DNA of 63,617 bases from Gammaproteobacteria bacterium (GTDB lineage Bacteria; Pseudomonadota; Gammaproteobacteria; GCA-002705445; GCA-002716945). Positions within the stretch are counted from its first letter, which is position 1; each line of letters begins with the position of its first letter. Below, one piece after another: positions 19,265 through 32,677 of this stretch. Location: contig JBJKYD010000013.1 of the NCBI GenBank assembly GCA_045561295.1, forward strand, positions 1-63,617, given 5' to 3'. The notes below the pieces were generated by a model. That model did no database searches. It was not told the DNA's origin and saw only the letters and a program-made list of their open reading frames with translations. A program made the position numbers and the translations under genes.

Positions 19265-19563
19265 AGTTCTATACAAATGTTATTATCCTCAATGATTGTA
19301 GGATATGTTTTTATTGGCTCATCAGCAGGCTCATTAAGCGCCTCACCTGTTTCTAGATCAAAGTAACTTCCATGTAATGAGCACTTTATAGTTTTGTCTT
19401 TTAAGCATCCAAGAATTAATTCAGAGTTTTCATGGCTGCACATATTATCAACCACAAAGTACTCCTCATTCACTTTAGCAACAAGGTATGAATGTTTTTC
19501 ATGAATAATTTCTAACATATTATTTTCAGAAAAAGCATCAGTTGAGCATAATGTAACAATCAT
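19261..19563 (-). CDS. Rieske-type [2Fe-2S] ferredoxin
   Basis: CSH...CSLHGSYFDL.TGE (CxH/CxxH). Confidence 0.9.
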   Translation of the reverse strand: MIVTLCSTDAFSENNMLEIIHEKHSYLVAKVNEEYFVVDNMCSHENSELILGCLKDKTIKCSLHGSYFDLETGEALNEPADEPIKTYPTIIEDNNICIEL

Positions 19564-20666
19564 GATTTCATTCGTTTTAGTGCTGAGCCACTATCAATAA
19601 CTTTTAATACCTCTTTGGAACATTCTTTAACATCGTTGCCTGTCATCCTTTGAAGTATAATCGAGGCCCCTAGTTGTATACATGATTTCATAGCTCCGTT
19701 TTTACCAGATAGAGCTTCTTGTCCAGATTTTACTGTTGCTTTGGCAATATCTGTTGCTGATACTTTTGATTCAATCTTATCTTTTGTATCTTTTCTCACT
19801 ATACCTTCGGGAATATCAACAGCCCTTGATTCATCATTAATTTGCAAGTCTTCTGGCTTAACCTCATACATCTTATCTTCTTCACCAGGCTTATCATAAT
19901 AATGGACTTTACCAATTTGCCTTAACGATGGGATAATTCCACCCTCTGTACCTCTTACTACACTTGCGGAGTGGAACTCAGCATTTCTAGATAATTCAAG
20001 ATAGATTGGCGGATAAGGTTTGTGAACAAAGCCTGTAAAAAATGCATCATGTTTAGAACTGATTGGCTTAACGAGAACTTCTACTGTAGTTATAACTGGT
20101 CTTTTAATAATTTTTTTCCTAAGGTTCATTAAGTTGTGAAGTTTAGGATTAAAAATAGATTGATCAGCGTAAGCCCACCCAATATTTTTATCTTCTAATC
20201 GAGCTGCAATTTCCTCATGTGAATTCTCACAATTATAATTAAGCTCTTTAAGAGTGAGATGATGAGTACAGCCGTATTTTGGACCAACAGATAAAACCCC
20301 ATGAGAGATTATTGGATATCCTAATTCTGCAAGGACAGGCAATAAAAAAATTGATGAAGGTAGGTTTCTAGAAAAGCCATCATATGGATCAGCTATATTA
20401 ATTAAATTATCGGTAGCTATATTTATAGAATGGGTTGTTTCAATAATTGCATCATGAACCCCTAGATTTTCGTCCATGGTTTCTCTTTTCATTCTTAGGG
20501 CAATAAGAAAAATTGCAGCTTGTATGGGATCAATTTCATCATTAAGAATATCCATCATCGTTTGCTTAGCTTCTTCTCTTGAAATATTTTTACTAAGCTC
20601 AGGACCTGTAGCTATTCTTTGAATAACAGACTTCATATTTTCATTTGGGCTTAATTTATTATTCAT
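19560..20666 (-). CDS. Anthranilate phosphoribosyltransferase-like (TrpD2/YbiB-like) protein
   Basis: GT3 N-terminal helical domain (SREEA...M..IL...IDP.QAA.FLIALRMKRET), GFVHKPY, VRGTEG; lacks the TrpD GTGGD PRPP-binding motif. Confidence 0.7.
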   Translation of the reverse strand: MNNKLSPNENMKSVIQRIATGPELSKNISREEAKQTMMDILNDEIDPIQAAIFLIALRMKRETMDENLGVHDAIIETTHSINIATDNLINIADPYDGFSRNLPSSIFLLPVLAELGYPIISHGVLSVGPKYGCTHHLTLKELNYNCENSHEEIAARLEDKNIGWAYADQSIFNPKLHNLMNLRKKIIKRPVITTVEVLVKPISSKHDAFFTGFVHKPYPPIYLELSRNAEFHSASVVRGTEGGIIPSLRQIGKVHYYDKPGEEDKMYEVKPEDLQINDESRAVDIPEGIVRKDTKDKIESKVSATDIAKATVKSGQEALSGKNGAMKSCIQLGASIILQRMTGNDVKECSKEVLKVIDSGSALKRMKS

Positions 20667-21262
20667 TTAAAAACTATCCAAGTTGTTGCAATATACTTTG
20701 AACCTTTTTTAAGTGTAACACCTCGATGTTCATGGGTCCAAAATGGGGGAAATACTACTAACTTACCCTCTTCAGGTTTTACCTTAACTTTTTGATGTAA
20801 AAATTCAGTTTCTCCACCAGGGCCTTCTACATCATTTAGATACCATATAGCGACGAGTTGCCTATCACTCATTTGGTGACTCCCACTATCTACATGCCAG
20901 TGAAAATATTCTCCAACATCTGTTCTTTGAATGGCGTAACCAATATCTTTGAATTTTCCATTAAAATAATCATATTCTTTTTTTATTTTAGATAGAGCTT
21001 TCGATAAGCTTACAAAAAATAATTCATCAACATCTTTCCATGAATCTTTACCACTGATAACCATATCAGTAGATTTTTTTACCGTATCATTTTCTTCAAA
21101 GTTAGGACCAACTCTACCTCGATAATGATCATCTTTAGATTCCTCGAATCTTTCAATTATTTCCTTACACTTTTGTGATGGAATTTCATTATCAAATTCA
21201 AAGATAAAACTTCCTGGCAAGCTTTCTATAAGTCTTTTTTCTATTTTTATTTCGTTAGCCAT
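20663..21262 (-). CDS. 2OG-Fe(II) oxygenase
   Basis: WHVD (HxD), IWYLNDV..GGETEF, FPPFWTHEHRG, KYI.TTW. Confidence 0.85.
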   Translation of the reverse strand: MANEIKIEKRLIESLPGSFIFEFDNEIPSQKCKEIIERFEESKDDHYRGRVGPNFEENDTVKKSTDMVISGKDSWKDVDELFFVSLSKALSKIKKEYDYFNGKFKDIGYAIQRTDVGEYFHWHVDSGSHQMSDRQLVAIWYLNDVEGPGGETEFLHQKVKVKPEEGKLVVFPPFWTHEHRGVTLKKGSKYIATTWIVFK

Positions 21263-21302
21263 AATATTTATATTACACAGTAAATGTTATCATCTGAATA
21301 CT

Positions 21303-21866
21303 ATGGCAATAAGAATTAAAAGCAAGTGGTCTAAAACAGTTAAAAGAAGTAAAACTCCTGAGGATTTTGGAAGCGCCCTTTCTTTTATTTCATGGAGATT
21401 ATCTCTTGATAAAGCAAAGACACTTCATGGTGAGGATTTTGAATATGAAAATGATCATCAAAGAGTGTCTGTAATAGTAGAGTACATGTCCTTTCAAGTG
21501 CACCTTGTTGACAGGCTGTTGTATGAAGATAAAGCTGATAATGATTTTAGAGCTGAAGTAATGAATTCTCTTGGCAAGCAATCTTCAAGAATAATGCAAG
21601 AAAATTGTGAGGATTTGTTTGGTCCAGGTGATTATAAAAAAGGATATATAAACACTCTCAACATAAGATCATCAGAATATTCTCAATTTGAATTCTCTAG
21701 AAAAGGGAGTAATTATTCCTTATACAGGCATCTATCAAAAAAATGTCAAGATGTTATGGGGTACAGTCAAACGAACAAATGGGTTATGGATCAGATTATC
21801 GATATAGATTCTGTAGAGATATTGAAAAAGATTCTGGAAGTTTATGATTCAGTGACAAAGTCCTAA
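21303..21866 (+). CDS. Hypothetical protein
   Basis: 187-aa intact ORF; N-terminus RIKS.W and A..FI.WR recall an uncharacterised family I associate with sulfur oxidisers (recollection, unverified). Confidence 0.65.
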   Translation: MAIRIKSKWSKTVKRSKTPEDFGSALSFISWRLSLDKAKTLHGEDFEYENDHQRVSVIVEYMSFQVHLVDRLLYEDKADNDFRAEVMNSLGKQSSRIMQENCEDLFGPGDYKKGYINTLNIRSSEYSQFEFSRKGSNYSLYRHLSKKCQDVMGYSQTNKWVMDQIIDIDSVEILKKILEVYDSVTKS

Positions 21867-21867
21867 A

Positions 21868-22062
21868 TTAGTCTTTAAATTTTTCTACGTTGTCAAAATT
21901 ATTATTTTTTCCATCTTCATATCCAGCTTGATATGCGTCAGTCATTCTTTGTTCTTCTACTTCAGGTGCATCTTGATAACCTTCTTGCCAACCTAAGACG
22001 TACTGTTCGTTAGCTTTCATGTTTTCAAGTTCAGTTACTTTATCAAAATATTCTTTATTCAT
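21868..22062 (-). CDS. Alvin_2107-like sulfur-globule oxidation protein
   Basis: Y.LGW..GY...P..EEQR.T.AY.AGYEDGK pattern recognised from that small family; context next to dsr. Confidence 0.65.
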   Translation of the reverse strand: MNKEYFDKVTELENMKANEQYVLGWQEGYQDAPEVEEQRMTDAYQAGYEDGKNNNFDNVEKFKD

Positions 22063-22295
22063 TATGTTCTTATTGACCCCTTAATCTTATGAGCGATATC
22101 AACTAGTCTGTTTGCAAGCTTTTCATGCTCTTCTTTGTATTCTTTAACGATACCCTTGGGATTATGATGAATATCTTTTTCTGTAACTCCTTTCTCTCTC
22201 TCAAGATCCATAAATTTTTTTTGAATCTCTAAAATTCTTGTAATAATTTCTTTTCTTTCTTTTTGAAGATCTTTCTCGTTTACTGACTCAGTCAT
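22062..22295 (-). CDS. Small helical hypothetical protein
   Basis: Stop/start overlaps with both neighbours; E.QKKF...E...G, L..IAH..KGS.R. Confidence 0.7.
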   Translation of the reverse strand: MTESVNEKDLQKERKEIITRILEIQKKFMDLEREKGVTEKDIHHNPKGIVKEYKEEHEKLANRLVDIAHKIKGSIRT

Positions 22296-22633
22296 TAGTA
22301 TCCACCTTTTCTTCTGCTTTCAGGTAAACCACCAATTCTACCTGCTTGTTTACTAGGGTTGCCTGGGAACAAGTCAAATAATGTTTTTGAATCAATCTTT
22401 TCTCCCCATAGTTTTCCCATATCTTTAATCATATTCCTAGTGTTTGGTTGATTTTCTTTATTATTTATAAATTCATCTCTGAGATAATTAATAACATCCC
22501 AATGTCTCTCTGTCAGTTCAATACCTTCTTGTTGTGCAATAACTAATGCTATTTCTTTTGTCCAGTCCTCAATACTAGTCAAAAAGCCTGTGTCTGTAGT
22601 GGATATCTCTTTTCCATCAACTTCAACTTTCAT
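22295..22633 (-). CDS. TusE/DsrC-family protein lacking the C-terminal cysteines (RspA-type)
   Basis: GFL....DW...IA..IA..EGIELT..HW.VI.YLR, LF.LFP..P.KQA..I.GLP; ends ESRRKGGY with no Cys; SD GAGGAG before ATG 22633. Confidence 0.85.
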   Translation of the reverse strand: MKVEVDGKEISTTDTGFLTSIEDWTKEIALVIAQQEGIELTERHWDVINYLRDEFINNKENQPNTRNMIKDMGKLWGEKIDSKTLFDLFPGNPSKQAGRIGGLPESRRKGGY

Positions 22634-22662
22634 ATCTGACTCCTCATAATCTGAATTTATCA

Positions 22663-22682
22663 ATATTGGAAAATTCTAATAT
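22663..22682. promoter_or_regulatory. Near-perfect inverted repeat upstream of the RspA-type gene
   Basis: ATATTGGAA-AA-TTCTAATAT (one mismatch). Confidence 0.5.
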
Positions 22683-22720
22683 ACTACAAAGTATAAGTCT
22701 ATAAGGTTATAAATAAATTC

Positions 22721-23398
22721 TCAGTCTTCTTTGAAATTATTGACTGCATCAATAGATTTATGCGGAAGGAAAATACCACAACCATATAATTTTTTTCCAC
22801 CTACACCCTCTTCTTGGATTTTGAGAGATTCCTCTTTGGATAAATCAGCAATCATGAGAGACCTTGTGTAGACTGTGTTTTTATCAAAATTAATTGTCAT
22901 AGATCTCCCACAAAGAGCTTTTTTAATATTAACATTGAAATTTCTGAGCTCCATTTGAATTTTTTCAAGGAAATCATCTTCTGAAATCTTATTATCACTA
23001 ATGACGAATCTACAAAACAAGTCCTTAACTATTAGAAAATTTTTTACTTTTGATATACCTATTTTCAGGCTATTTCCAAAAAGTTTAATCTCTTTACCTT
23101 CAATATCTTTAATGTCATCAATTTGATTTTTATTTATACGCATTATCAATTTTGCTCTTTTAGACAAAGGAATATTTTCACTATCAGGCCTGACCCAACC
23201 ATTGCCAGACATTGGACCATGTAGCGTTTGAATTGAGTTTCTCTTATCATTTTTAATTTGTGGAATCAGGTTTAGAATTTCTGAGGAAAGTTCGTAGGCA
23301 TGATCATAGGGGAGCTCTCTACAATTTACAGAGAATGATAACTCAGCCATATCAGAATCATCAGCAATTGATTTTTTCTGATCAGTCTCTTGCCACAT
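22721..23398 (-). CDS. cas6: Orphan Cas6/Cmx6-like RAMP endoribonuclease
   Basis: N-terminal LSF....LPYDHAYEL, L..R, I.L.G..L.IG, and C-terminal Gly-rich loop S..IQEEGVGGKKLYGCGIFLP (GhGxxxxxGhG); start moved to ATG 23398. Confidence 0.8.
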   Translation of the reverse strand: MWQETDQKKSIADDSDMAELSFSVNCRELPYDHAYELSSEILNLIPQIKNDKRNSIQTLHGPMSGNGWVRPDSENIPLSKRAKLIMRINKNQIDDIKDIEGKEIKLFGNSLKIGISKVKNFLIVKDLFCRFVISDNKISEDDFLEKIQMELRNFNVNIKKALCGRSMTINFDKNTVYTRSLMIADLSKEESLKIQEEGVGGKKLYGCGIFLPHKSIDAVNNFKED

Positions 23399-23403
23399 AA
23401 TTA

Positions 23404-23598
23404 CTAATCTCGTATACAACCACTGAATACACTCTCGACACGATCTTGCCAATCATCGGGTGTATCTGGAAATGGCGGCTTCAAATCAAATCTGATAAAC
23501 ATTTCTCCCTCTGCAGCCTTCTGTCTAACGACATCGAGAAGCTCATCAAATGTTTCAACATCTTTACGTTCTATTAGTAGTGCGCTTAGATACAACAT
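23404..23598 (-). CDS. Small hypothetical protein (64 aa) of the dsr-flanking operon
   Basis: TFDELL..VR..A..GE.F...D.KPPFPDTP.DW..R.E..F; start overlaps the tauD-like stop. Confidence 0.7.
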   Translation of the reverse strand: MLYLSALLIERKDVETFDELLDVVRQKAAEGEMFIRFDLKPPFPDTPDDWQDRVESVFSGCIRD

Positions 23599-24437
23599 TA
23601 CAGTCTCTCATATGATCTTATTCTAAGAAGTTTTCTATTTACTTTATCATCTTTAAAGGAATTTCTACCATGTAAAATATTGTTAGTCAAAATACCTTGA
23701 TTCTTACAAAGCTTATATGTAAGTGAATACTGAGCACAATGACTTTCAATAATTTTTTTTAACCTCGTGATGGCATCAGATGCTCTCGTGCTCGATGATA
23801 TATTATCTTTTCTCATAGAGAATCGCATATGTAATTTTTTATACGCATTGCTGAACGAGAAGATATACGTTGATATTTCGGATCTAGATGTATCCTTACT
23901 TTCAGGAATAATTAGTGCGCCATCTTCCATCAAAACATTTATATCATCATTTCTTAAGATATACTCTCTAAGTACAAGCTCATGATCAAGTAAATAATTT
24001 TCACCACCTTCACTTGAAGGGCTTACACAATGGAGAAGCCATGAGAATATTGATTTCTCATCATAATAACCGTCTGTATGCCAATTGAGTGCTTTCTCAG
24101 TATAGGGAATATAACTCACTTTGCTGGTTTCTCTTGGCGTAATAGTACTGATTTTATTTAAATCTATGTTGTTACAGTCATATGTTTTCATACCTATCGA
24201 CTCGACAAATCTCAAAAGGTTGGAGTTAGATTTTAGATTCATATTTGAGGCATATATGCAGCAGTTGTATGTCTGGATTATTTCTTTAATCTTGGTAATT
24301 TCAGTTGTTGTTACATTATTAATATCATGGATTTCCACCAATAATTCATTAATATTTTGAGGGATATTCTTCTCTTTTTCCTCAGCCCACCTTAGAAATT
24401 CAGTTGATTTTGATGTCAATATCATACTTTTATACAC
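23598..24437 (-). CDS. TauD/TfdA-family 2OG-Fe(II) dioxygenase
   Basis: IPYT...LNWHTDGYY (HxD), LLHC..P...GGEN.L.D, NNILHGR.SF, R.L.R.R; start GTG 24437 or ATG 24425. Confidence 0.85.
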   Translation of the reverse strand: MYKSMILTSKSTEFLRWAEEKEKNIPQNINELLVEIHDINNVTTTEITKIKEIIQTYNCCIYASNMNLKSNSNLLRFVESIGMKTYDCNNIDLNKISTITPRETSKVSYIPYTEKALNWHTDGYYDEKSIFSWLLHCVSPSSEGGENYLLDHELVLREYILRNDDINVLMEDGALIIPESKDTSRSEISTYIFSFSNAYKKLHMRFSMRKDNISSSTRASDAITRLKKIIESHCAQYSLTYKLCKNQGILTNNILHGRNSFKDDKVNRKLLRIRSYERL

Positions 24438-24569
24438 TGTTTAATCATAGGTTATTTTAATACTTGTTTTTTATAATAAATCCATGCAATATTAACTTCA
24501 CGTGGACATATTAGAAATCAATGATAAAATAATATACATTGGAAACCAAAGGATTTTAGGGGAATATTT

Positions 24570-25826
24570 GTGAAAAAACATGATACACCAATGATTGATG
24601 AGCTTGAGAATGGCCCATGGCCAAGCTTCATAAGTGGAATTAAAAGACTCAGGGACACACATCCTGAGAAACGAATTAATGAAATGACTAATGACCTACT
24701 AGGTCAATTGGAGCATTCATATGAAACACGCAAAGGTTACTGGAAAGGTGGCACAGTGAGTGTTTATGGTTATGGCGGAGGAATTATTCCAAGATTCTCC
24801 GAAGTGGGTAACGCATTTCCTGCATCCAAAGAATTTCATACTTTAAGAGTTCAACCTCCTGCAGGTAATTTTTATTCAACAAGTATGCTAAGAAAGCTTG
24901 CGGACAGTTGGGAGAAGCATGGCTCAGGTCTAGTAACATTCCATGGGCAAACAGGCAATATAATGTTTATTGGTTCAACAACAGAGAATACCCAACACTT
25001 CTTTGATGAAATTAATGACTATGGTTTTGACCTTGGTGGCGCAGGACCATGTGTAAGAACAGCAATGTCTTGTGTTGGTGCCGGTCGTTGTGAGATGTCT
25101 AATGTTAATGAGCATAAAGCTCACAGACTTCTTGTGAATAATTTTACTGATGACGTACACAGACCAGCTTTACCATATAAATTTAAATTTAAAGTCTCAG
25201 GTTGCCCAAATGATTGTATGAACTCTATCGAGAGAGCCGATATGTCAGTCATTGGAACATGGAGAGATGATATAAAAATCGATCAGGAAGAATTTAAAAA
25301 ATTTGTCGAAATGAAAGGACGTAAATATGTTATTGATAATATCGTTACAAGATGTCCTACGAATGCGATTTCTCTAAATGATGATGATTCAATTCAAATA
25401 GATAACCAAAACTGTGTTAAATGTATGCACTGTCTAAATGTAGTGCCTAAAGCACTCCAGTGTGGAGACGACAAAGGCGTCACTATACTTATTGGTGGTA
25501 AAAGAACACTTAAAATCGGTGATCTTATGGGAACTGTTATTGTTCCATTCATGAAACTCGAGAAAGAGGAGGATTGGGAAAGACTTGTCGAAATTGCCGA
25601 GGAAACAATTGACTTCTGGGCTGATAATGCCCTTGAGCATGAGAGATGCGGTGAGATGATTGAAAGAATCGGCCTAGTAAACTTCTTGGAAGGCGTCGGC
25701 TTTGATGTCGATCCAAACATGGTAGCAAACCCTAGAGAGAGCTCATACGTCAGAACCGATGACTGGGATGATGAAGCGGTAAAATGGTATGAGAAAATCG
25801 ATGAACGCAAAAAAGGATCAGCATAA
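24570..25826 (+). CDS. dsrA: Dissimilatory sulfite reductase alpha subunit (oxidative type)
   Basis: GPWPSF, YWKGG, CVGAGRCE, PYKFKFKVSGCPNDC siroheme/Fe-S motif, CVKCMHC; SD TAGGGG. Confidence 0.98.
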   Translation: MKKHDTPMIDELENGPWPSFISGIKRLRDTHPEKRINEMTNDLLGQLEHSYETRKGYWKGGTVSVYGYGGGIIPRFSEVGNAFPASKEFHTLRVQPPAGNFYSTSMLRKLADSWEKHGSGLVTFHGQTGNIMFIGSTTENTQHFFDEINDYGFDLGGAGPCVRTAMSCVGAGRCEMSNVNEHKAHRLLVNNFTDDVHRPALPYKFKFKVSGCPNDCMNSIERADMSVIGTWRDDIKIDQEEFKKFVEMKGRKYVIDNIVTRCPTNAISLNDDDSIQIDNQNCVKCMHCLNVVPKALQCGDDKGVTILIGGKRTLKIGDLMGTVIVPFMKLEKEEDWERLVEIAEETIDFWADNALEHERCGEMIERIGLVNFLEGVGFDVDPNMVANPRESSYVRTDDWDDEAVKWYEKIDERKKGSA

Positions 25827-26911
25827 TGGGCGAGAAAGCAAAAAAAGAAATGAGAACCCCAATAGAGACTGGTTGTCCTGACGGTTTTCAATATATGCAT
25901 CCTACGATGCGTAAAAATTTTGGTCAATGGAAGTATCATGAACATCCACGACCAGGTGTGTTACTGCATGTGTCTAATAGTGGCGAGGAAATCTGGACTG
26001 TAAGAGCCGGTACTCAGCGTATACTCGACGTTTTTACACTCAGAACCTTATGTGATATTGGAGATGAATATGCAGACGGGTACGTCAGATTCACTATAAG
26101 AAGTAATATTGAGTATATGGTCAAGGATAAAGATAAAGTCCAGCCATTAATTGATGCTCTAGAAAAAGAAGGCTTCATAGTTGGTGGAACTAAAAACTCA
26201 GTAGCAATGATTTCACATACTCAAGGATGGTTACATTGCGATATTCCAGGAACTGATGCTTCGGGTGTCGTTAAAGCTATGATGGATGAACTAATAGATG
26301 AATTTAGAAACAATGAAATGCCAAATAGAGTACATTTAACAACATCTTGTTGTCAGATTAACTGTGGCGGTCAAGGTGATATTGCTATCAATATTCAGCA
26401 CACCAAGCCACCTAAAATAAATCACGACCTAGTATCAAATGTATGTGAACGTCCATCTGTTGTTGCAAGATGCCCAGTAGCAGCGATTAGACCAGCAATG
26501 GTCAATGGGAAACCATCACTAGAAGTAGATGAAAAAAAATGTATATGTTGCGGAGCGTGTTTCCCACCATGTCCACCTATGCAAATCAATGATCCTGAGC
26601 ATAGTAAACTTGCAATATGGGTAGGTGGAAACCACTCAAATGCTAGAAGCAAACCATCTTTCCAAAAACTAGTAGCTGCTGGAATACCTAATAACCCACC
26701 AAGATGGCCTGAAGCAACTGCTATAGTAAAAAGAATCTTATCAGCGTATAAAGAAGATGCTAGAGATTGGGAAAGAATAAACGATTGGATTGAGAGAATA
26801 GGTTGGCCTAGATTCTTTGAACTAACTGAGCTTCCATTCACTAAGTATCATATTGATAACTGGCGTGGCGGTAGAAAAACTCTCAACTCATCAGCATACG
26901 TTAGATTTTAA
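25826..26911 (+). CDS. dsrB: Dissimilatory sulfite reductase beta subunit
   Basis: HTQGWLHC, SCCQINCG, CERPSVVARCP, CICCGAC, PNNPPRWPE, WIERIGWPRFF. Confidence 0.98.
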   Translation: MGEKAKKEMRTPIETGCPDGFQYMHPTMRKNFGQWKYHEHPRPGVLLHVSNSGEEIWTVRAGTQRILDVFTLRTLCDIGDEYADGYVRFTIRSNIEYMVKDKDKVQPLIDALEKEGFIVGGTKNSVAMISHTQGWLHCDIPGTDASGVVKAMMDELIDEFRNNEMPNRVHLTTSCCQINCGGQGDIAINIQHTKPPKINHDLVSNVCERPSVVARCPVAAIRPAMVNGKPSLEVDEKKCICCGACFPPCPPMQINDPEHSKLAIWVGGNHSNARSKPSFQKLVAAGIPNNPPRWPEATAIVKRILSAYKEDARDWERINDWIERIGWPRFFELTELPFTKYHIDNWRGGRKTLNSSAYVRF

Positions 26912-26923
26912 TCTCTATTCGAT

Positions 26924-27316
26924 ATGAAGTTTGGAGTTTTAATCAACGAAGGCCCATATCAGCATCAAGCATCTGATTCTGCATATAAATTTATTGAAGC
27001 TGCAATAGAAGAAGGGCATGAAATATATCGTGTTTTTTTCTATCATGATGGCGTTAATAACGGAACTCGACTAGCAACACCACCACAAGATGATCGCCAC
27101 ATTCCAAACAGATGGAGTGAACTAGCAGAAAAACATGATTTAGATTTAGTATTATGTGTCGCTGCAGCTCAAAGACGTGGAATGGTTGATGAAGGTGAGA
27201 TGGAGCGTAACAAAAAAGATGCAAACAATATCGCTGATAAATTTAGAATTTCAGGTCTCGGTCAGCTCATAGAAGCTGGAATACAAGCAGATCGTATGAT
27301 TACATTTGGGGATTAG
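26924..27316 (+). CDS. dsrE: Sulfurtransferase DsrE
   Basis: VFFYHDGV, LCVAAAQRRG (active Cys), ISGLGQL. Confidence 0.95.
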   Translation: MKFGVLINEGPYQHQASDSAYKFIEAAIEEGHEIYRVFFYHDGVNNGTRLATPPQDDRHIPNRWSELAEKHDLDLVLCVAAAQRRGMVDEGEMERNKKDANNIADKFRISGLGQLIEAGIQADRMITFGD

Positions 27317-27317
27317 A

Positions 27318-27704
27318 GTGGAAGAGCAAGAACTAGAATCAGGCAAAATTAGAAAATTCATTTATGTGAATAGAAAAGCACCTCATGGAACAATCTATGC
27401 ACACGAAGCTTTAGAAGTCGTCTTAATAGCTGCAGCTTTTGAGCAGGATGTCTCTTTGGCGTTTATAGATGATGGAGTATATCAGCTAAAAAAAGGTCAA
27501 AATACGGATGGTATTGCTACTAAAAACTTTAGTAAAACTTTTGGAGCTTTAGACATGTATGACGTAGAAAAATTATATGTTGAAAAAGAATCATTAGATG
27601 CAAGAGGTTTAAGTGAAGAGGACTTATCTGTAGATGTTGAGATATTGCCTGCATTAGATTTAAAAAAACTATTCAACGAATCTGAGGTGTTTTTTAATTT
27701 CTAA
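27318..27704 (+). CDS. dsrF: DsrF
   Basis: RKAPHGTIYA.EALEV, F.DDGVYQL.KGQ, SL..RGL; probable start GTG 27318. Confidence 0.95.
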   Translation: MEEQELESGKIRKFIYVNRKAPHGTIYAHEALEVVLIAAAFEQDVSLAFIDDGVYQLKKGQNTDGIATKNFSKTFGALDMYDVEKLYVEKESLDARGLSEEDLSVDVEILPALDLKKLFNESEVFFNF

Positions 27705-28006
27705 TGTTACATACAATTAATAAATCACCATTTGAAAAAGATAGCTTAAGCACATGTCTTCGTTATGCAGATAAAGGAGCATCTGTACTTTTTATAGAAG
27801 ATGCTGTTTATGCTTGTACTAAAGGTACTCAGTTCGAAAAAGCGATTCATGATAACCATGGAGATATAAAGTTTTATGTTCTTGGCCCTGATTTAGAAGC
27901 AAGAGGACTTGATAATTCTAATCTTACTACTAATATAGAAATAGTAGATTATAAAGGTTTCGTTAAACTAGTAGCGGATAATGAAAAAACACAAAATTGG
28001 CTTTAA
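27704..28006 (+). CDS. dsrH: DsrH
   Basis: MLHTINKSPF, CLR, IEDAVY, PDLEARGL, VDY.GFV.L. Confidence 0.95.
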   Translation: MLHTINKSPFEKDSLSTCLRYADKGASVLFIEDAVYACTKGTQFEKAIHDNHGDIKFYVLGPDLEARGLDNSNLTTNIEIVDYKGFVKLVADNEKTQNWL

Positions 28007-28025
28007 TCTTAATTAGGAGAAGAAA

Positions 28026-28358
28026 ATGGCATTAGAAGTAAATGGCAAACAAATAGAGGTAGATGAAGAGGGATATCTTTCTAATCTGAATGATTGGGAA
28101 AAAGATATTGCTACAATCATGGCGAAGGAAGATGATATTGAGCTTGGTGATGATCACTGGGAAATAATTAACTTCTTACGCGAATACTACGAAGAATACC
28201 AAATAGCACCTGCAGTAAGAGTTCTTACTAAAGCTGTTGGTAAAAAACTTGGCAAAGACAAAGGAAATAGTAAATATTTATACGAACTTTTCCCATATGG
28301 CCCAGGTAAACAAGCATGTAAATTTGCAGGTCTACCAAAACCAACTGGTTGCGTATAA
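28026..28358 (+). CDS. dsrC: Sulfur carrier DsrC
   Basis: Two conserved C-terminal Cys: ACKFAGLPKPTGCV; SD AGGAG. Confidence 0.97.
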   Translation: MALEVNGKQIEVDEEGYLSNLNDWEKDIATIMAKEDDIELGDDHWEIINFLREYYEEYQIAPAVRVLTKAVGKKLGKDKGNSKYLYELFPYGPGKQACKFAGLPKPTGCV

Positions 28359-28386
28359 AAAACAGTCAAAAGGTCAGGGATAGCCA

Positions 28387-29124
28387 ATGTCATTTGTAAC
28401 TATATTGTATGCAGCGTTGTTCTACTTCGCTGCAGCAATATTGTTCATAGGGCTTGCATACAGAATATATGAATACGCAACAATTCCTGCGCCACTAAAA
28501 ATACCTACCCCACCAGCACCCATGACACAAAGAGGTGTCGCCGTAAGAATATTCCGTGAAGTTGTTTTTTTTGAAAGCCTTTTTTCTGCGACTAAGTGGA
28601 CTTGGCTCTTTAGTTGGATTTTTCATTTAGCACTCTTACTCGCAGCTTTTAGACATTTAAAATATTTTACTGACCCTGTTTGGTCTTGGGTATCATCTGA
28701 ATTAGTACAGGTAGCAGGCCACTATGCGGTATATTTAATGTTAGCAGGTTTATTAGGACTGTTTGCAAGAAGAGTTTTTGTGGATCGAGTAAGATATATC
28801 TCAGTCCCATCTGATTATCTTATATTAGTATTGATCATAGCCATAGCAGGTTCAGGTTTAATGATGAAATGGTTTCCATCTGACATATTGGCAATCAAAT
28901 TATTTTTTACAGGGTTATTAACATTTAATATTTCAGAATTACCAAGTGATACTGTCCTACTTATTCATTTATCATTAGTTATTGCATTAATGATCATTTT
29001 TCCATACAGTAAATTACTGCATGCACCTGGTCTGTTTTTTAGCCCTACAAGAAACCAGGTTGATAACGCAAGAAGCAAAAGACATGTAGCTGATTGGGCA
29101 AAGAAAATGGAGTCTAGTAAATAA
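28387..29124 (+). CDS. dsrM: DsrM membrane cytochrome b
   Basis: NarI-like TM protein, FHLALL...RH, RVRYIS.PSDY, H..L...FP.SKLLH; operon position. Confidence 0.93.
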   Translation: MSFVTILYAALFYFAAAILFIGLAYRIYEYATIPAPLKIPTPPAPMTQRGVAVRIFREVVFFESLFSATKWTWLFSWIFHLALLLAAFRHLKYFTDPVWSWVSSELVQVAGHYAVYLMLAGLLGLFARRVFVDRVRYISVPSDYLILVLIIAIAGSGLMMKWFPSDILAIKLFFTGLLTFNISELPSDTVLLIHLSLVIALMIIFPYSKLLHAPGLFFSPTRNQVDNARSKRHVADWAKKMESSK

Positions 29125-29125
29125 T

Positions 29126-30625
29126 ATGGCCAAGAATAATTTTGAAACACCTGAAGTTAGAACTTTTCCAGTAATACCTAAATTAGAAAACAGTGCGACA
29201 GCACATTTATCTCCATTCAAATCAAAAGAAGAATTTCAAACAAGTCTTGGTTATCCAGGAGAGCTTGTAGATAACTGGCAAGAAAAAGCAATAGATAAAA
29301 TGGGCGATCTATTAACTAAATATCGCTCACTTAGAGTGTATTTAGATTCATGCATCCAGTGTGGAGCTTGTACAGATAAGTGCCACTATTATCAAGGAAC
29401 AAAAGATCCTAAGAATATGCCAGTCGGTCGACAAAACTTAATGAGAAGTGTTTACAGAAGATACTTCACTCTGCCCGGGAAATATTTCCCTAAACTTGTT
29501 GGAGCAAAGGATTTAACTAAAGAAGTTTTAGAGGATTGGTACTCTTACTATCACCAATGCTCGCAGTGTCGAAGATGCGCAGTATTTTGTCCTATAGGAA
29601 TTGATACTGCAGAAATATCTATGGCTGCAAGAGAAGTAATGGACTCTATCGGTGTTGGTCAAAAGTACTGCAATGAAATTATTAGTAAAGTGCATAAAAT
29701 TGGAAACAACCTTGGTTTACCAGAGCCGGCATTAGCTGACACTTTAGAAGGTCTTGAAGAGGATGTTCTTGATGAAACAGAAGCTGATGTAAAATTTCCG
29801 CTAGATGTTAAAGACTCAGATGTTTTATTAGTTACACCATCTGCTGATTTTTTTGCAGAACCACATGTTGATGGCCTTATAGGATATGCGAAAGTATTTC
29901 ATCAGGCAGGAATAAGCTGGACATTAAGCTCTCATGCTAGTGAGGCAGCCAACTTTGGTATGTTTATTGGCAGCTATGACAATATGAAAAAACTTGCCAT
30001 GAGAATTAGAGAGGCAGCACTAGAACTAAATGTAAAAAGAATTGTTTTTGGAGAATGTGGACATGCATGGAGAGTAGCATACAGCTTCCTAAATACTTTA
30101 GCCGGTCCTTTTGATTTTCTTGATCCACGATACCCAGTACCTCAACATATATGTGAAATTACAAGTTCTTTAATGGATCAGAATGTTCTCCAATTTGACA
30201 AAAGCGCAAATGACGAGATGACATTGACATATCATGATTCATGCAATGTGGCTAGGGCATCTAATATGGGTGGAATTATGGGTGGACAATTTACTATTCC
30301 GCGTAAAATCATAAAAACTGTAGTTAATAATTTCTATGATATGGATGAAGAAACCATCAGAGAGAAAACTTACTGCTGCGGAGGCGGAGGCGGTTTGCTG
30401 ACAGATGATTTAATGGAATTGAGAGTAAAAGGTGCTTTGCCAAGGATGGAGGCTTTAAAACAACTAATTGATGAAAAAGGTGTCACACATATGGCAGCTA
30501 TTTGCGCTATTTGTAAGAGTCAATTTAGTAAGGTTTTTCAGTATTATGACCTTGAATTAGATCAAATAGTCAGTGTCCATCAGTTAGTGAGTAATGCCAT
30601 AATAATGAACAAAAAAGAGGTTTAG
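29126..30625 (+). CDS. dsrK: DsrK (HdrD-like Fe-S protein)
   Basis: CIQCGACTDKC, CSQCRRCAVFCP, GECGH, YHDSCN, CCGGGGG, CAIC. Confidence 0.95.
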   Translation: MAKNNFETPEVRTFPVIPKLENSATAHLSPFKSKEEFQTSLGYPGELVDNWQEKAIDKMGDLLTKYRSLRVYLDSCIQCGACTDKCHYYQGTKDPKNMPVGRQNLMRSVYRRYFTLPGKYFPKLVGAKDLTKEVLEDWYSYYHQCSQCRRCAVFCPIGIDTAEISMAAREVMDSIGVGQKYCNEIISKVHKIGNNLGLPEPALADTLEGLEEDVLDETEADVKFPLDVKDSDVLLVTPSADFFAEPHVDGLIGYAKVFHQAGISWTLSSHASEAANFGMFIGSYDNMKKLAMRIREAALELNVKRIVFGECGHAWRVAYSFLNTLAGPFDFLDPRYPVPQHICEITSSLMDQNVLQFDKSANDEMTLTYHDSCNVARASNMGGIMGGQFTIPRKIIKTVVNNFYDMDEETIREKTYCCGGGGGLLTDDLMELRVKGALPRMEALKQLIDEKGVTHMAAICAICKSQFSKVFQYYDLELDQIVSVHQLVSNAIIMNKKEV

Positions 30626-30703
30626 CTCTAAATATCTTGTGCTATACTTTTAAAATTGGAGTATTAGTAAAGTATAATAAACTTATATAAAGTGTTGAAT
30701 TAA

Positions 30704-32677
30704 ATGACTAAATTAGAAAAAACAATAAACTTGATGAAAGAAGAAAATACCTACAAAAGGTATAATGAAGGTGATCACCAATATAGTGATTTCTCTGAAG
30801 CAATATTTGAACAAGATACTTCACACAAATGCCCTACATATGTCCACAAGACACCTCCTTGCCAGGGCAGTTGCCCATCTGGTGAGGATATTAGAGGTTG
30901 GCTACAAATTATTAAAGGTATAGAGCAGCCACCACAAGACATGTCAATGTCAGAGTATGCATTCCGAAGATCAACAACAGCTAATCCATTTCCGTCACAA
31001 ATGGGACGTGTATGCCCAGCTCCTTGTCAGAGTGGTTGTAACAGAAATGAGGTTGATGACTATGTTGGTATAAATGCAGTTGAACAATTTATTGGTGATA
31101 AAGCTATTGAAGAGGGTTACTCGTTTGATGCTGCTCCAAAGCTAAATAAAGAACGTGTTGCAATCATTGGTGGTGGACCAGCAGGATTGTCCGCAGCATA
31201 TCAATTAAGAAAAATGGGTTATGCCTCTACAGTATTTGAAGAAAGAAAAGAGCTAGGCGGAATGATGAGATATGGCATACCAGGTTATAGAACACCTAGA
31301 GATCTACTTGATAAAGAAATAGAAAGAATCATAAATCTTGGTGATATAGAAGTGGTCACTGGCAAACGTGTAGGTAAAGACTTACCTCTAGATGATATAG
31401 AAAAATCACATGATGCAGTTCTTTGGACTATCGGATGTTGGAATGGTAAAGCAATACCAGTAGAGGGTGGCGATGCCACTAACTGTATTACAGGTGTTGA
31501 TTTTCTAGAAGCATTCTGTGACGGAAGGCTCAAAGTAGGATCTAAAAAAGTAATTTGTGTTGGTGGTGGAGATACGTCAATTGATGTTGTATCTGTAGCA
31601 CGTCGTCTTGGTCACATCTCAAAAATGAATGAACAAGATACACCAGAAAATATAGTACATGGTTATGTAGCACAAGATGTCTCAGAATCAGCTGCAAAAG
31701 AAGGTGCTGTTGTGACTTTAACATCATTATTTGCAAAAGAAGAAATGACTGCTGCTGAACAAGAAGTAAACGATGCTATGCATGAAGGTGTGACGATACT
31801 AAATGGCGTTATGCCAGTCAAAATTGAAAAAGATGAAAACAACAAAGCCGTTGCTATGGTAGTGGCTGAATGTACATTTGATGAAAATAATATACCGGTA
31901 CCTGTTGAGGGAACAGAAAAAAGAATAGAAGCCGACCTTATAGTTGCAGCTATTGGACAATCACCAGATATAGAAGGTCTTGATGATCTTGGTAACGAAC
32001 GAGGATTCTTTGAGGTTGACGATTACTATAGACATAAAACAAAAGAAGGACATTTTGTAGCTGGAGATATAATTAGACCTCATTTACTTACAACAGCAAT
32101 TGGTCAAGGCTCAATAGTTTCACAAACAATTAAAAGCTACTTCGAAAATAATGATTTCAAAAGACGTCCAAAAGTTGACGTGCATCACTTTAACCTACTA
32201 GACAAATTAAGAGAAACTGACCTAGAACCAGAAAAATACACCGCGCCAATAGAGCCAGATGAGTTACGTGGTTCTGATACAAGTAAAAATGTTTTACATA
32301 ACTATGAGGATCGCTCATCTCAGGAAATTATTCCATCAACAGAACTCTTTCTTGGTCACTTCAAACATGAAGATAGATTAAAGCGTGGGGAAGATGTTCC
32401 TAGCGGAGATGAAGTAATAGATAACTATAAAGATAGAATCATAGGCCTTACCGAGGAAGAGGCAATCAAAGAAGCATCAAGATGTATGAGTTGTGGAATG
32501 TGTTTCGAATGTGATAACTGTGTAATTTATTGTCCACAAGATGCTGTATTCAGGGTTAAAAAAGATGAAGCAACGCTGGGTAGATATGTAGATACTGATT
32601 ATAATAAATGTATTGGTTGTCATATATGTGCAGATGTATGTCCAACTGGTTATATTAAAATGGGCCTTGGCGAATAG
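30704..32677 (+). CDS. dsrL: DsrL Fe-S flavoprotein (DsrL-1 type)
   Basis: PPCQGSCP, GRVCPAPC, GGGPAG, YGIP, GGGDT; TLTSLF in place of the YRR of NADP-type DsrL-2; C-terminal ferredoxin domain. Confidence 0.93.
   Translation: MTKLEKTINLMKEENTYKRYNEGDHQYSDFSEAIFEQDTSHKCPTYVHKTPPCQGSCPSGEDIRGWLQIIKGIEQPPQDMSMSEYAFRRSTTANPFPSQMGRVCPAPCQSGCNRNEVDDYVGINAVEQFIGDKAIEEGYSFDAAPKLNKERVAIIGGGPAGLSAAYQLRKMGYASTVFEERKELGGMMRYGIPGYRTPRDLLDKEIERIINLGDIEVVTGKRVGKDLPLDDIEKSHDAVLWTIGCWNGKAIPVEGGDATNCITGVDFLEAFCDGRLKVGSKKVICVGGGDTSIDVVSVARRLGHISKMNEQDTPENIVHGYVAQDVSESAAKEGAVVTLTSLFAKEEMTAAEQEVNDAMHEGVTILNGVMPVKIEKDENNKAVAMVVAECTFDENNIPVPVEGTEKRIEADLIVAAIGQSPDIEGLDDLGNERGFFEVDDYYRHKTKEGHFVAGDIIRPHLLTTAIGQGSIVSQTIKSYFENNDFKRRPKVDVHHFNLLDKLRETDLEPEKYTAPIEPDELRGSDTSKNVLHNYEDRSSQEIIPSTELFLGHFKHEDRLKRGEDVPSGDEVIDNYKDRIIGLTEEEAIKEASRCMSCGMCFECDNCVIYCPQDAVFRVKKDEATLGRYVDTDYNKCIGCHICADVCPTGYIKMGLGE

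Follow-up and report, generated by a model that had tools for sequence, protein, structure and literature searches.

A probably CRISPR-independent clade of Cas6/Cmx6 proteins linked to the dsr locus of Gammaproteobacteria

The Cas6-like gene and its locus

The stretch of DNA analysed here (the window, 63,617 nucleotides, contig JBJKYD010000013.1 of the gammaproteobacterial assembly GCA_045561295.1) carries, beside a set of dsr genes, a gene for a protein of the Cas6 family, whose best-known members belong to CRISPR-Cas (short palindromic repeats, clustered and regularly interspaced, with their associated proteins). The gene is in all likelihood a member of a Dsr-linked Cas6 clade that is maintained by selection independently of CRISPR-Cas, and the exaptation of a Cas6 of the Cmx6 type out of CRISPR-Cas is strongly supported.

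The frame at 22721-23398 of the minus strand is uninterrupted (225 codons plus stop), and the two motifs that the initial annotation had singled out in an intact, Cmx6-like protein are in place, LPYDHAY at residues 29-35 and the glycine-rich loop GVGGKKLYGCG at 198-208. An alternative start at TTG 23452 would give 243 amino acids (aa) and overlap the gene upstream; the start at ATG 23398 is favoured because the N-terminal sequence M-x-W-Q-E is conserved, with Trp2 in 96% of 104 relatives. The protein matches Pfam PF09559 (Cas6 Crispr) with an E value of 3.7e-54 and 184.1 bits (cut-off 26.7) over positions 2-191 of the 191 in the profile, and NCBIfam TIGR02807 (cas6_cmx6) with 126.5 bits (cut-off 98.85), so that the proposed check against Cas6/Cmx6 profiles passes both curated cut-offs. 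An AlphaFold2 (AF2) model built from 46 relatives (predicted local distance difference test score, pLDDT, 90.5; predicted template modelling score, pTM, 0.86) is predicted to contain the two ferredoxin-like domains, of the RNA recognition motif (RRM) type, that make up the RAMP (repeat-associated mysterious protein)/Cas6 fold. The best Foldseek match of the model is 8fcj_B, the Cas6 of a type I-B CRISPR-associated transposon (CAST) Cascade (E 4.4e-15, template modelling scores, TM, 0.74/0.77). Foldseek gave 43 PDB matches at E <= 0.001; the rows listed reach about E 6e-04 and consist of Cas6, Cse3 or Cmr chains, and a non-RAMP fold was not seen among them. A sequence profile compared with PDB chains gave 8fcj_B as its sole significant match (E 8.5e-26; from the next row on, E is 0.28 or higher). 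We regard it as confirmed that 22721-23398 encodes a Cas6-family protein, with a Cas6 fold as modelled.

The sulfur-gene setting described in the initial annotation is borne out, with dsrA to a DsrL-like gene at 24570-32677 on the plus strand. The description of the gene as a single orphan is not, as it is part of a conserved module of several genes. On the minus strand these follow in the order TauD-like, 64-aa, Cas6-like, Cys-less DsrC-like, 77-aa and Alvin_2107-family gene, head to head with dsrAB. The features are given below; "related loci" are the best 80 of at least 591 confirmed relatives found in a search of one genome per species.

21868..22062, minus strand: Alvin_2107-family small protein (NCBIfam NF049856, 79.4 bits, cut-off 60; in 32 of the 80 related loci within the flanks)
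22062..22295, minus strand: 77-aa protein of no known family (open reading frame, ORF; no curated-level family match; tblastn match in 37 of the 80 related loci)
22295..22633, minus strand: Cys-less DsrC/TusE-like protein, 112 aa (PF04358, E 3.6e-32; the listed ORF starts at TTG 22663)
22673..22701, minus strand: promoter-like TAGACT-N17-TAGAAT in the spacer that separates the Cas6 stop from the DsrC-like gene (scan 9/12; weak evidence)
22721..23398, stop codon included, minus strand: dsr-type Cas6/Cmx6 homologue, 225 aa (ORF, translation, PF09559, TIGR02807, AF2 model)
23404..23598, minus strand: acidic 64-aa protein that falls into no known family; most constant neighbour, separated from the Cas6 start by 5 bases on the upstream side
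23598..24437, minus strand: TauD/TfdA-family 2-oxoglutarate dioxygenase-like protein, 279 aa (PF02668, E 5.5e-11), the first gene of the TauD-like/64-aa/Cas6 run
24570..26911, plus strand: dsrA and dsrB (TIGR02064, 611.3 bits; TIGR02066, 554.7 bits), divergent from the module
26924..32677, plus strand: dsrE, dsrF, dsrH, dsrC, dsrM, dsrK and a DsrL-like NAD(P)-binding protein (NCBIfam matches)

In the last of these rows TusD/DsrE, TusC/DsrF, TusB/DsrH, the DsrC family, DsrK and PRK12771 exceed their cut-offs and DsrM stays below (153.6 against 300). The module is compact: the TauD-like and 64-aa genes overlap by 1 base, 5 bases separate the 64-aa from the Cas6-like gene, a 57-base spacer follows, and the DsrC-like, 77-aa and Alvin_2107-family genes overlap successively by 1 base. 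The start of dsrA lies 1.2 kb from the Cas6-like gene. Gene order is identical in 20 of 20 loci of the window's taxonomic family, as far as each stretch extends, with dsrA on the opposite strand.

CRISPR partners are missing from the assembly (1.03 Mb, 19 contigs, 92.38% complete, 6.77% contamination), in agreement with what had been noted for the window. No repeat-spacer array was detected in any of the 19 contigs by a k-mer scan for regularly spaced repeats (word 14); a near-identical version (word 12) recovered the true arrays of two control loci, L101 and L102 (18 and 8 repeats, 36 bases each). The Rfam collection, CRISPR repeat families included, has no match in the window. Profile searches of the whole assembly returned no Cas1, Cas2, Cas5 or Cas7/DevR, and the matches of the Cas3 core profile were helicase-like and stayed below its cut-off of 102.45 (31.4 bits at best); the Cmx8 profile gave no match, which carries no weight since its control matched nowhere either. 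The array and the neighbouring cas3, cmx8/cas8a1, cas7, cas5 and cas4/cas1 genes that define type I-MYXAN are thus not found beside this gene. Because the assembly is 92.38% complete, the absence of cas genes and arrays from this single genome is likely rather than proven.

Distribution and descent of the Dsr-linked copies

Judged by record name, the 80 related loci come nearly all from sulfur-oxidising Gammaproteobacteria, among them Halochromatium, Lamprobacter, Thiohalocapsa, Thiogranum, Thiohalobacter, Thiothrix, Marithrix, Parabeggiatoa, Sedimenticolaceae and Acidiferrobacterales. Some records are labelled as Nitrospiraceae, Methylomirabilis or Halobacteria metagenome-assembled genomes, labels that we suspect to be binning errors. 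Of the 80 loci, 77 have the 64-aa gene upstream of Cas6 and codirectional with it, and 78 have a DsrC-like gene no more than about 1.4 kb downstream, which about 10 of them carry on the opposite strand; dsrA is present in the fetched flanks of 72 loci, dsrB in those of 66 and the TauD-like gene in those of 65.

The same association appears in a class sample of 401 evenly drawn genomes from about 240 families and 321 genera, in which dsrA was scored as TIGR02064 at E <= 1e-30. PF09559 is present in 125 genomes, dsrA in 127 and both in 120, and the carriers span about 97 genera. Three of the five carriers without dsrA (G203, G168, G293) have the same module at a contig end, the fourth (G057) has a true CRISPR locus and the fifth (G343) has Cas1 on the same contig. 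Cas1 occurs in 145 of the 401 genomes and, among the 125 carriers, in 61 and not in 64; PF09559 and Cas1 share a contig in three places (G057, G342, G343). These tallies include the unpublished genomes G343 (with PF09559 on the same contig as Cas1) and, each with Cas1, G075 and G177, without which the conclusions are unchanged. We report counts instead of a probability because related genomes are not independent samples. Two observations weigh against a strict tie to Dsr: seven of the 127 dsrA genomes, four of them at least 90% complete, lack the Cas6-like gene, and in Parabeggiatoa and Marithrix, which do keep the 64-aa gene next to Cas6, the pair is remote from dsr.

Of the 37 genomes in the window's taxonomic family, 30 carry PF09559, among them 15 of the 17 of high quality, all of about 1 Mb. 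Cas1 is in none of the 37, some of which are listed as 99-100% complete in 3-20 contigs. Nor is there an array in the flanks of 100 dsr-type loci (L001-L100), where the three repeat hits are tandem or coding repeats; these include 109-base tandem repeats in the Parabeggiatoa locus (L034, 3467-3816) and 15-base ones in L057 (10325-10599), both near the module.

These counts bear on the simplest account of a lone gene, that it encodes an ordinary Cas6 acting in trans on an array and cas operon in the unassembled 8% of the genome. The account draws on the 92.38% completeness and 19 contigs of the assembly, on the tendency of arrays to break assemblies, and on the statement, in the available part of PMC12669027, that most type III systems apparently rely on Cas6 supplied in trans from other loci. 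It fits poorly with a family in which Cas6 is present in most genomes and Cas1 in none, with the 64 class-sample carriers that lack Cas1 and with the array-free flanks, and poorly too with G342, which has a dsr-type copy adjoining dsrAB and a separate CRISPR-type copy beside an array. We consider it very improbable.

A maximum-likelihood tree of 111 proteins places the 104 dsr-linked sequences on one side of a branch with a support of 99 in the Shimodaira-Hasegawa-like approximate likelihood ratio test (SH-aLRT), and six CRISPR-linked (type I-MYXAN) sequences together with one Gloeobacter plasmid copy on the other. Together with the 120 of 125 carriers that have dsrA, this is the CRISPR-free clade tracking dsrAB for which the initial annotation had suggested looking. 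The separating branch is long and raised a long-branch warning, and because the tree is effectively unrooted it does not give the ancestral form, dsr-type or CRISPR-type. The Gloeobacter copy (L113, Gloeobacter morelensis plasmid pGMOR1, 2974-3765) groups with the CRISPR-type sequences on a very long branch and represents a second non-CRISPR context for a Cmx6-type Cas6, its neighbours being a cupin, a protein of the PAPS-reductase family and hypothetical proteins; the annotation places no cas gene closer than 3 kb. Separately, 18 residues of the Cas6 C-terminus recur with 94% identity at 1948-2001 of locus L002 (G011:C2), downstream of the full gene and beside a run of N; this copy may be an artefact of assembly or of duplication.

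The missing cas partners would also suit a remnant that is decaying after the loss of its CRISPR-Cas system and has no function today, and nothing more speaks for that view. Conservation refutes it: the Cas6-like frame is intact, with no internal stops, in all 30 family matches, streamlined genomes of about 1 Mb have kept the gene, as have some 97 genera of the class sample, and residues specific to the clade are invariant. The median dN/dS (ratio of nonsynonymous to synonymous substitution rates) among family orthologues is 0.08, from 17 usable pairs, most pairs being saturated at synonymous sites. A remnant is therefore of negligible likelihood, and the protein, as judged from its sequences, is strongly constrained by purifying selection, its surface having been rebuilt in part.

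Annotation pipelines label the dsr-type protein "type I-MYXAN CRISPR-associated protein Cas6/Cmx6". The family is already known, and for the dsr-type clade the type I-MYXAN label is wrong. CRISPR-free genomes receive it because the "equivalog" TIGR02807 scores dsr-type proteins above its cut-off. Most class-sample members of this curated "equivalog" family are in fact not CRISPR-associated, the dsr-type far outnumbering the CRISPR-type. What they belong to is an uncharacterised accessory module beside dsrAB that is almost universally co-inherited and that is retained even in the 1-Mb genomes of SUP05, drivers of sulfide oxidation in oxygen minimum zones.

Active site, candidate RNA targets and module partners

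The residues of 104 dsr-type and six CRISPR-type sequences were compared in the numbering of the window protein. Both types have in common Asp32-His33, Leu37, Arg87, Arg130, Phe143, Gln195, Gly198/200/206/208, Cys207, Phe210 and Pro212, and the basic residues at 83, 87, 130 and 203 are kept in both. His33, for which a catalytic role is presumed, is present in 104 of 104 and six of six sequences, and the four glycines of the loop (G198, G200, G206, G208) in 99-100% of the dsr-type and in six of six CRISPR-type sequences. In the AF2 model His33 lies at the start of helix 1 (helix 34-44), which we take to be the position of the catalytic His of Cas6e, at the start of its first helix. The glycine-rich loop of Cas6 contacts RNA in solved structures. 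Full retention of the helix-1 His and of the loop suggests that the ancestral active-site region is still in use.

A Cmx6-type RAMP protein has in all likelihood been removed from CRISPR-Cas and become a fixed member of an oxidative Dsr accessory module. On the reading that leads our analysis, it may still bind or cut specific RNA there through the retained Asp-His pair and glycine-rich loop. The outcome would be post-transcriptional control or maturation of some transcript of the Dsr regulon. This reading leads because the Asp-His pair and the loop are kept as in the CRISPR-linked relatives, and an RNA role for the protein is plausible but unproven. Its recognition surface would have been rebuilt, given that 11 old basic positions are lost and nine new ones (70, 80, 90, 92, 119, 159, 160, 179 and 214) are gained and conserved.

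Several results count against an RNA step. The 11 lost positions (65, 128, 135, 149, 166, 167, 170, 172, 173, 202 and 204; basic in at least four of six CRISPR-type and in fewer than 30% of dsr-type sequences) include the run at 166-173 in the C-terminal beta-hairpin. The median isoelectric point (pI) of the dsr-type proteins is 6.1, with 69 of 104 below 6.5 and six above 8, whereas the six CRISPR-type proteins all lie at 9.3-9.7; the window protein is at 6.84. The loss of basic positions and the acidic to neutral charge weaken the simple view of the same enzyme with a new RNA. Cys26, Cys163, His60 and His213 are specific to the clade and could mark a different chemistry. They belong to a longer set of residues found in the dsr-type only, namely a 16-residue N-terminal extension with an invariant Trp2, an 11-residue insert with Ser64, Asn66 and Gly67-Trp68-x-Arg70, and Cys26, His60, Ser79, Arg81, Glu140, Lys160, Cys163, Gly164, Thr178-Arg179-Ser180 and His213-Lys214. 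The lost basic hairpin, the shift in charge and the Cys, His, Trp and Arg set that is new to the clade speak for a rebuilt ligand site about as strongly as the retained His and loop speak for the use of RNA; such a site could serve another RNA or a partner that is not RNA.

The search for an RNA target also counts against an RNA step. Folding of 88 spacers between the Cas6 and DsrC-like genes gave no common hairpin, a promoter-like block being common to them instead; the dsrA leaders of the 88 loci have hairpins that are specific to lineages; RNAalifold returned no consensus structure for 13 unique dsrA leaders of the family; and at gathering scores nothing in the window matches Rfam, nor does anything in 21000-25000 at E <= 1. 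The processing of the ~12-kb dsr polycistron, given as an example in the initial annotation, gains no support from these searches of the locus, the dsrA leaders and Rfam, in which no conserved hairpin was found, and the gaps inside the dsr operon measure only about 12-78 bases. Of the broader proposal there, a domesticated Cas6 that acts as an RNase or RNA-binding regulator, the exaptation stands on the dsr-tracking clade, and the RNA role is hypothetical, with no hairpin found in those searches and 11 basic positions lost.

Among the lineage-specific hairpins, those in the dsrA leaders of L062, L069, L087, L097-L099 and the Chromatiaceae loci L041, L045, L047, L077 and L093 pair the Shine-Dalgarno sequence of dsrA to a stretch upstream that resembles CCUUCU or UUUCUC; none of this kind is seen in SUP05-type leaders.

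The same features can be taken to mean that the Cas6 fold has been reused for a role without RNA, as a subunit binding a protein or small ligand or as an enzyme with a new site, built from Cys26, Cys163, His60, His213, Trp68 and Arg70. Its partners would be the 64-aa, the TauD-like or the Cys-less DsrC-like protein, and its task sulfur trafficking, cofactor handling or the maturation of Dsr proteins. The change to an acidic or neutral protein with 11 CRISPR-type basic positions gone is what such a role would lead one to expect, as are the near-invariant insert with Gly67-Trp68-x-Arg70 and the new Cys and His residues, the tight coupling to protein-coding partners (the 64-aa gene and the Cas6 start are 5 bases apart) and the failure to find an RNA target in spacers, dsrA leaders or Rfam. 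It leaves unaccounted for why His33 and the whole glycine-rich loop stay at 100%, as in the CRISPR-linked relatives, and the basic residues kept at 83, 87, 130 and 203 together with the nine gained would equally suit a new nucleic-acid surface. We hold a role of this kind to be a distinct possibility, though a tentative one.

Metatranscriptome contigs from four marine runs of four studies cover dsrAB deeply and include the DsrC-like unit in all four, and the Cas6-like gene is partly covered, at low depth, in two. In two of the studies contigs break off at 22645, close to where the DsrC-like unit is proposed to begin. Because the data are contigs only, they indicate presence in RNA libraries rather than prove transcription, and we take them as a weak hint of expression and of a separate DsrC-like transcript.

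The most constant partner, the 64-aa protein, has a pI of 4.35 and 12 invariant columns in 43 sequences. It has no Pfam or NCBIfam match, and its model (pLDDT 88) has no PDB fold match at E <= 0.001. A DsrC-like identity was considered and rejected, the probability in profile comparison being 0.1-0.2%; its Atlas neighbours are its own unnamed-family clusters, which bear automatic "DsrC" names. Complex prediction for the Cas6-like and 64-aa proteins, both entered as alignments, gave a score of 0.02 against a mark of 0.32, which is not evidence on binding in either direction.

The likeliest start of the DsrC-like protein is ATG 22633, which gives it 112 aa, as in its relatives. Its C-terminus is GGLPESRRKGGY, in which both C-terminal Cys are missing, whereas the DsrC of the operon ends in QACKFAGLPKPTGCV. 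The ending RKGGY is found in the window and in L028, L031, L038, L047, L049, L063 and L077.

The DsrC-like/77-aa/Alvin_2107 part is probably transcribed from its own promoter, to judge by the spacer, whose block with TAGACT-N17-TAGAAT is conserved across the family loci; promoter-like sites in the region as a whole (10 found against 15.9 expected) are not above chance. The sequence ATATTAGAA occurs before both the DsrC-like gene and dsrA in the SUP05-type family (in the window at 22664-22720 on the minus strand and at about 24500-24535 on the plus strand), and the equivalent site before the DsrC-like gene of other sulfur oxidisers (L028-L100) is ATATTCG(C/A), often within a short palindrome. 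The conserved promoter/operator-like block may be a site for a Dsr-specific regulator, perhaps the Cys-less DsrC-like protein itself.

Larger genomes (L028, L031, L038, L049, L077 and others) have a further protein of about 234-239 aa and no known family between the 64-aa gene and Cas6. It is missing from SUP05-type genomes, its C-terminal stretch ...RLRN(V/I)VDV(L/M)VQD.WWFDR... is strongly conserved, and it has no family match, the Atlas giving weak TPR-like leads below 0.85. Beyond the Alvin_2107-family gene, the window holds a TrpD2/YbiB-like protein (19560-20666), a 2OG-Fe(II) oxygenase (20663-21262) and a 187-aa protein of no family (21303-21866), which are found within 10 kb of the module in 10, 38 and 34 of the 80 related loci, respectively.

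Carried to its full extent, the RNA reading would make the dsr-type Cas6 a dedicated RNA endonuclease or RNA chaperone of the oxidative Dsr pathway, specific for a sequence or a structure, that together with the 64-aa protein determines how much of the dsr or accessory transcripts is present. This would apply to almost all gammaproteobacterial sulfur oxidisers with reverse-type Dsr (rDsr), including the globally abundant SUP05 clade. We put this forward as speculation. If the RNA reading is true, a single Cas protein would have been domesticated into core energy metabolism. The finding makes an RNA-level control step in the Dsr pathway a testable question.

CRISPR-linked Cmx6 and other derivatives of CRISPR-Cas

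In the full-text literature we found no paper that links Cas6/Cmx6 to dsr or to sulfur oxidation, although gene tables or database comments might mention it; the available portions of PMC8730458, PMC3150331, PMC10952691, PMC5728499, PMC8616872, PMC12669027 and PMC8269255 contain no such link.

The closest known relatives are the Cas6 proteins of type I-MYXAN and type I-B (8fcj_B), which belong to the same Pfam and NCBIfam family, include the best fold match and have in common with the dsr-type the Asp-His pair, Arg87, Arg130 and the loop Q..G.G.....GCG.F.P, with the difference that the CAST Cas6 8fcj_B carries Asn at the position of His33. A genuine CRISPR-type Cmx6 is seen in G057 (L101), where the 18-repeat array is followed by Cas6/Cmx6 (194 aa, TIGR02807 187.7 bits), Cas3, Cmx8, Cas7, Cas5/Cmx5 and Cas4/Cas1, and the same annotated operon is found on five cyanobacterial plasmids. 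A search of 401 phylum genomes with the L101 Cas6 gave no further CRISPR-type relative at E <= 1e-25, a threshold that was overly strict and had no positive control. The CRISPR-linked Cmx6 is thus the first gene of a cas6-cas3-cas8/cmx8-cas7-cas5-cas4/cas1 operon beside an array, whereas the dsr-type stands without cas partners. The CRISPR-linked proteins have 194-224 aa, a strongly basic pI and the basic hairpin at 166-173; the dsr-type is acidic to neutral, adds the N-terminal extension and the Gly-Trp-x-Arg insert, and has C26, H60, C163, H213 and K214 of its own. Identity between the dsr-type and the gammaproteobacterial CRISPR-type copies is 27-29%. The CRISPR-linked Pyrococcus furiosus Cas6, Thermus Cse3/Cas6e and E. 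coli Cas6e are more distant, with 9-16% identity in structural alignments, and appear, from the modelled structure, to have the two-RRM Cas6 fold in common with it (Foldseek E 7e-08 to 2e-04).

Exapted derivatives of CRISPR-Cas have been described before. The available parts of the sources report a I-E-derived cas5-cas6-cas7-cas8 module with a STAND NTPase in Streptomyces and the haloarchaeal HRAMP (PMC8730458), and the solo-Cas4 (PMC5704561). Like the dsr-type Cas6, these are Cas proteins without an array, adaptation genes or Cas3, for which another role is predicted. They are multi-subunit effector remnants or nucleases and are thought to remain in defence or in mobile elements. The dsr-type, unlike them, is a single Cas6 inside an energy-metabolism locus, and would represent the exaptation of one Cas subunit into a housekeeping pathway.

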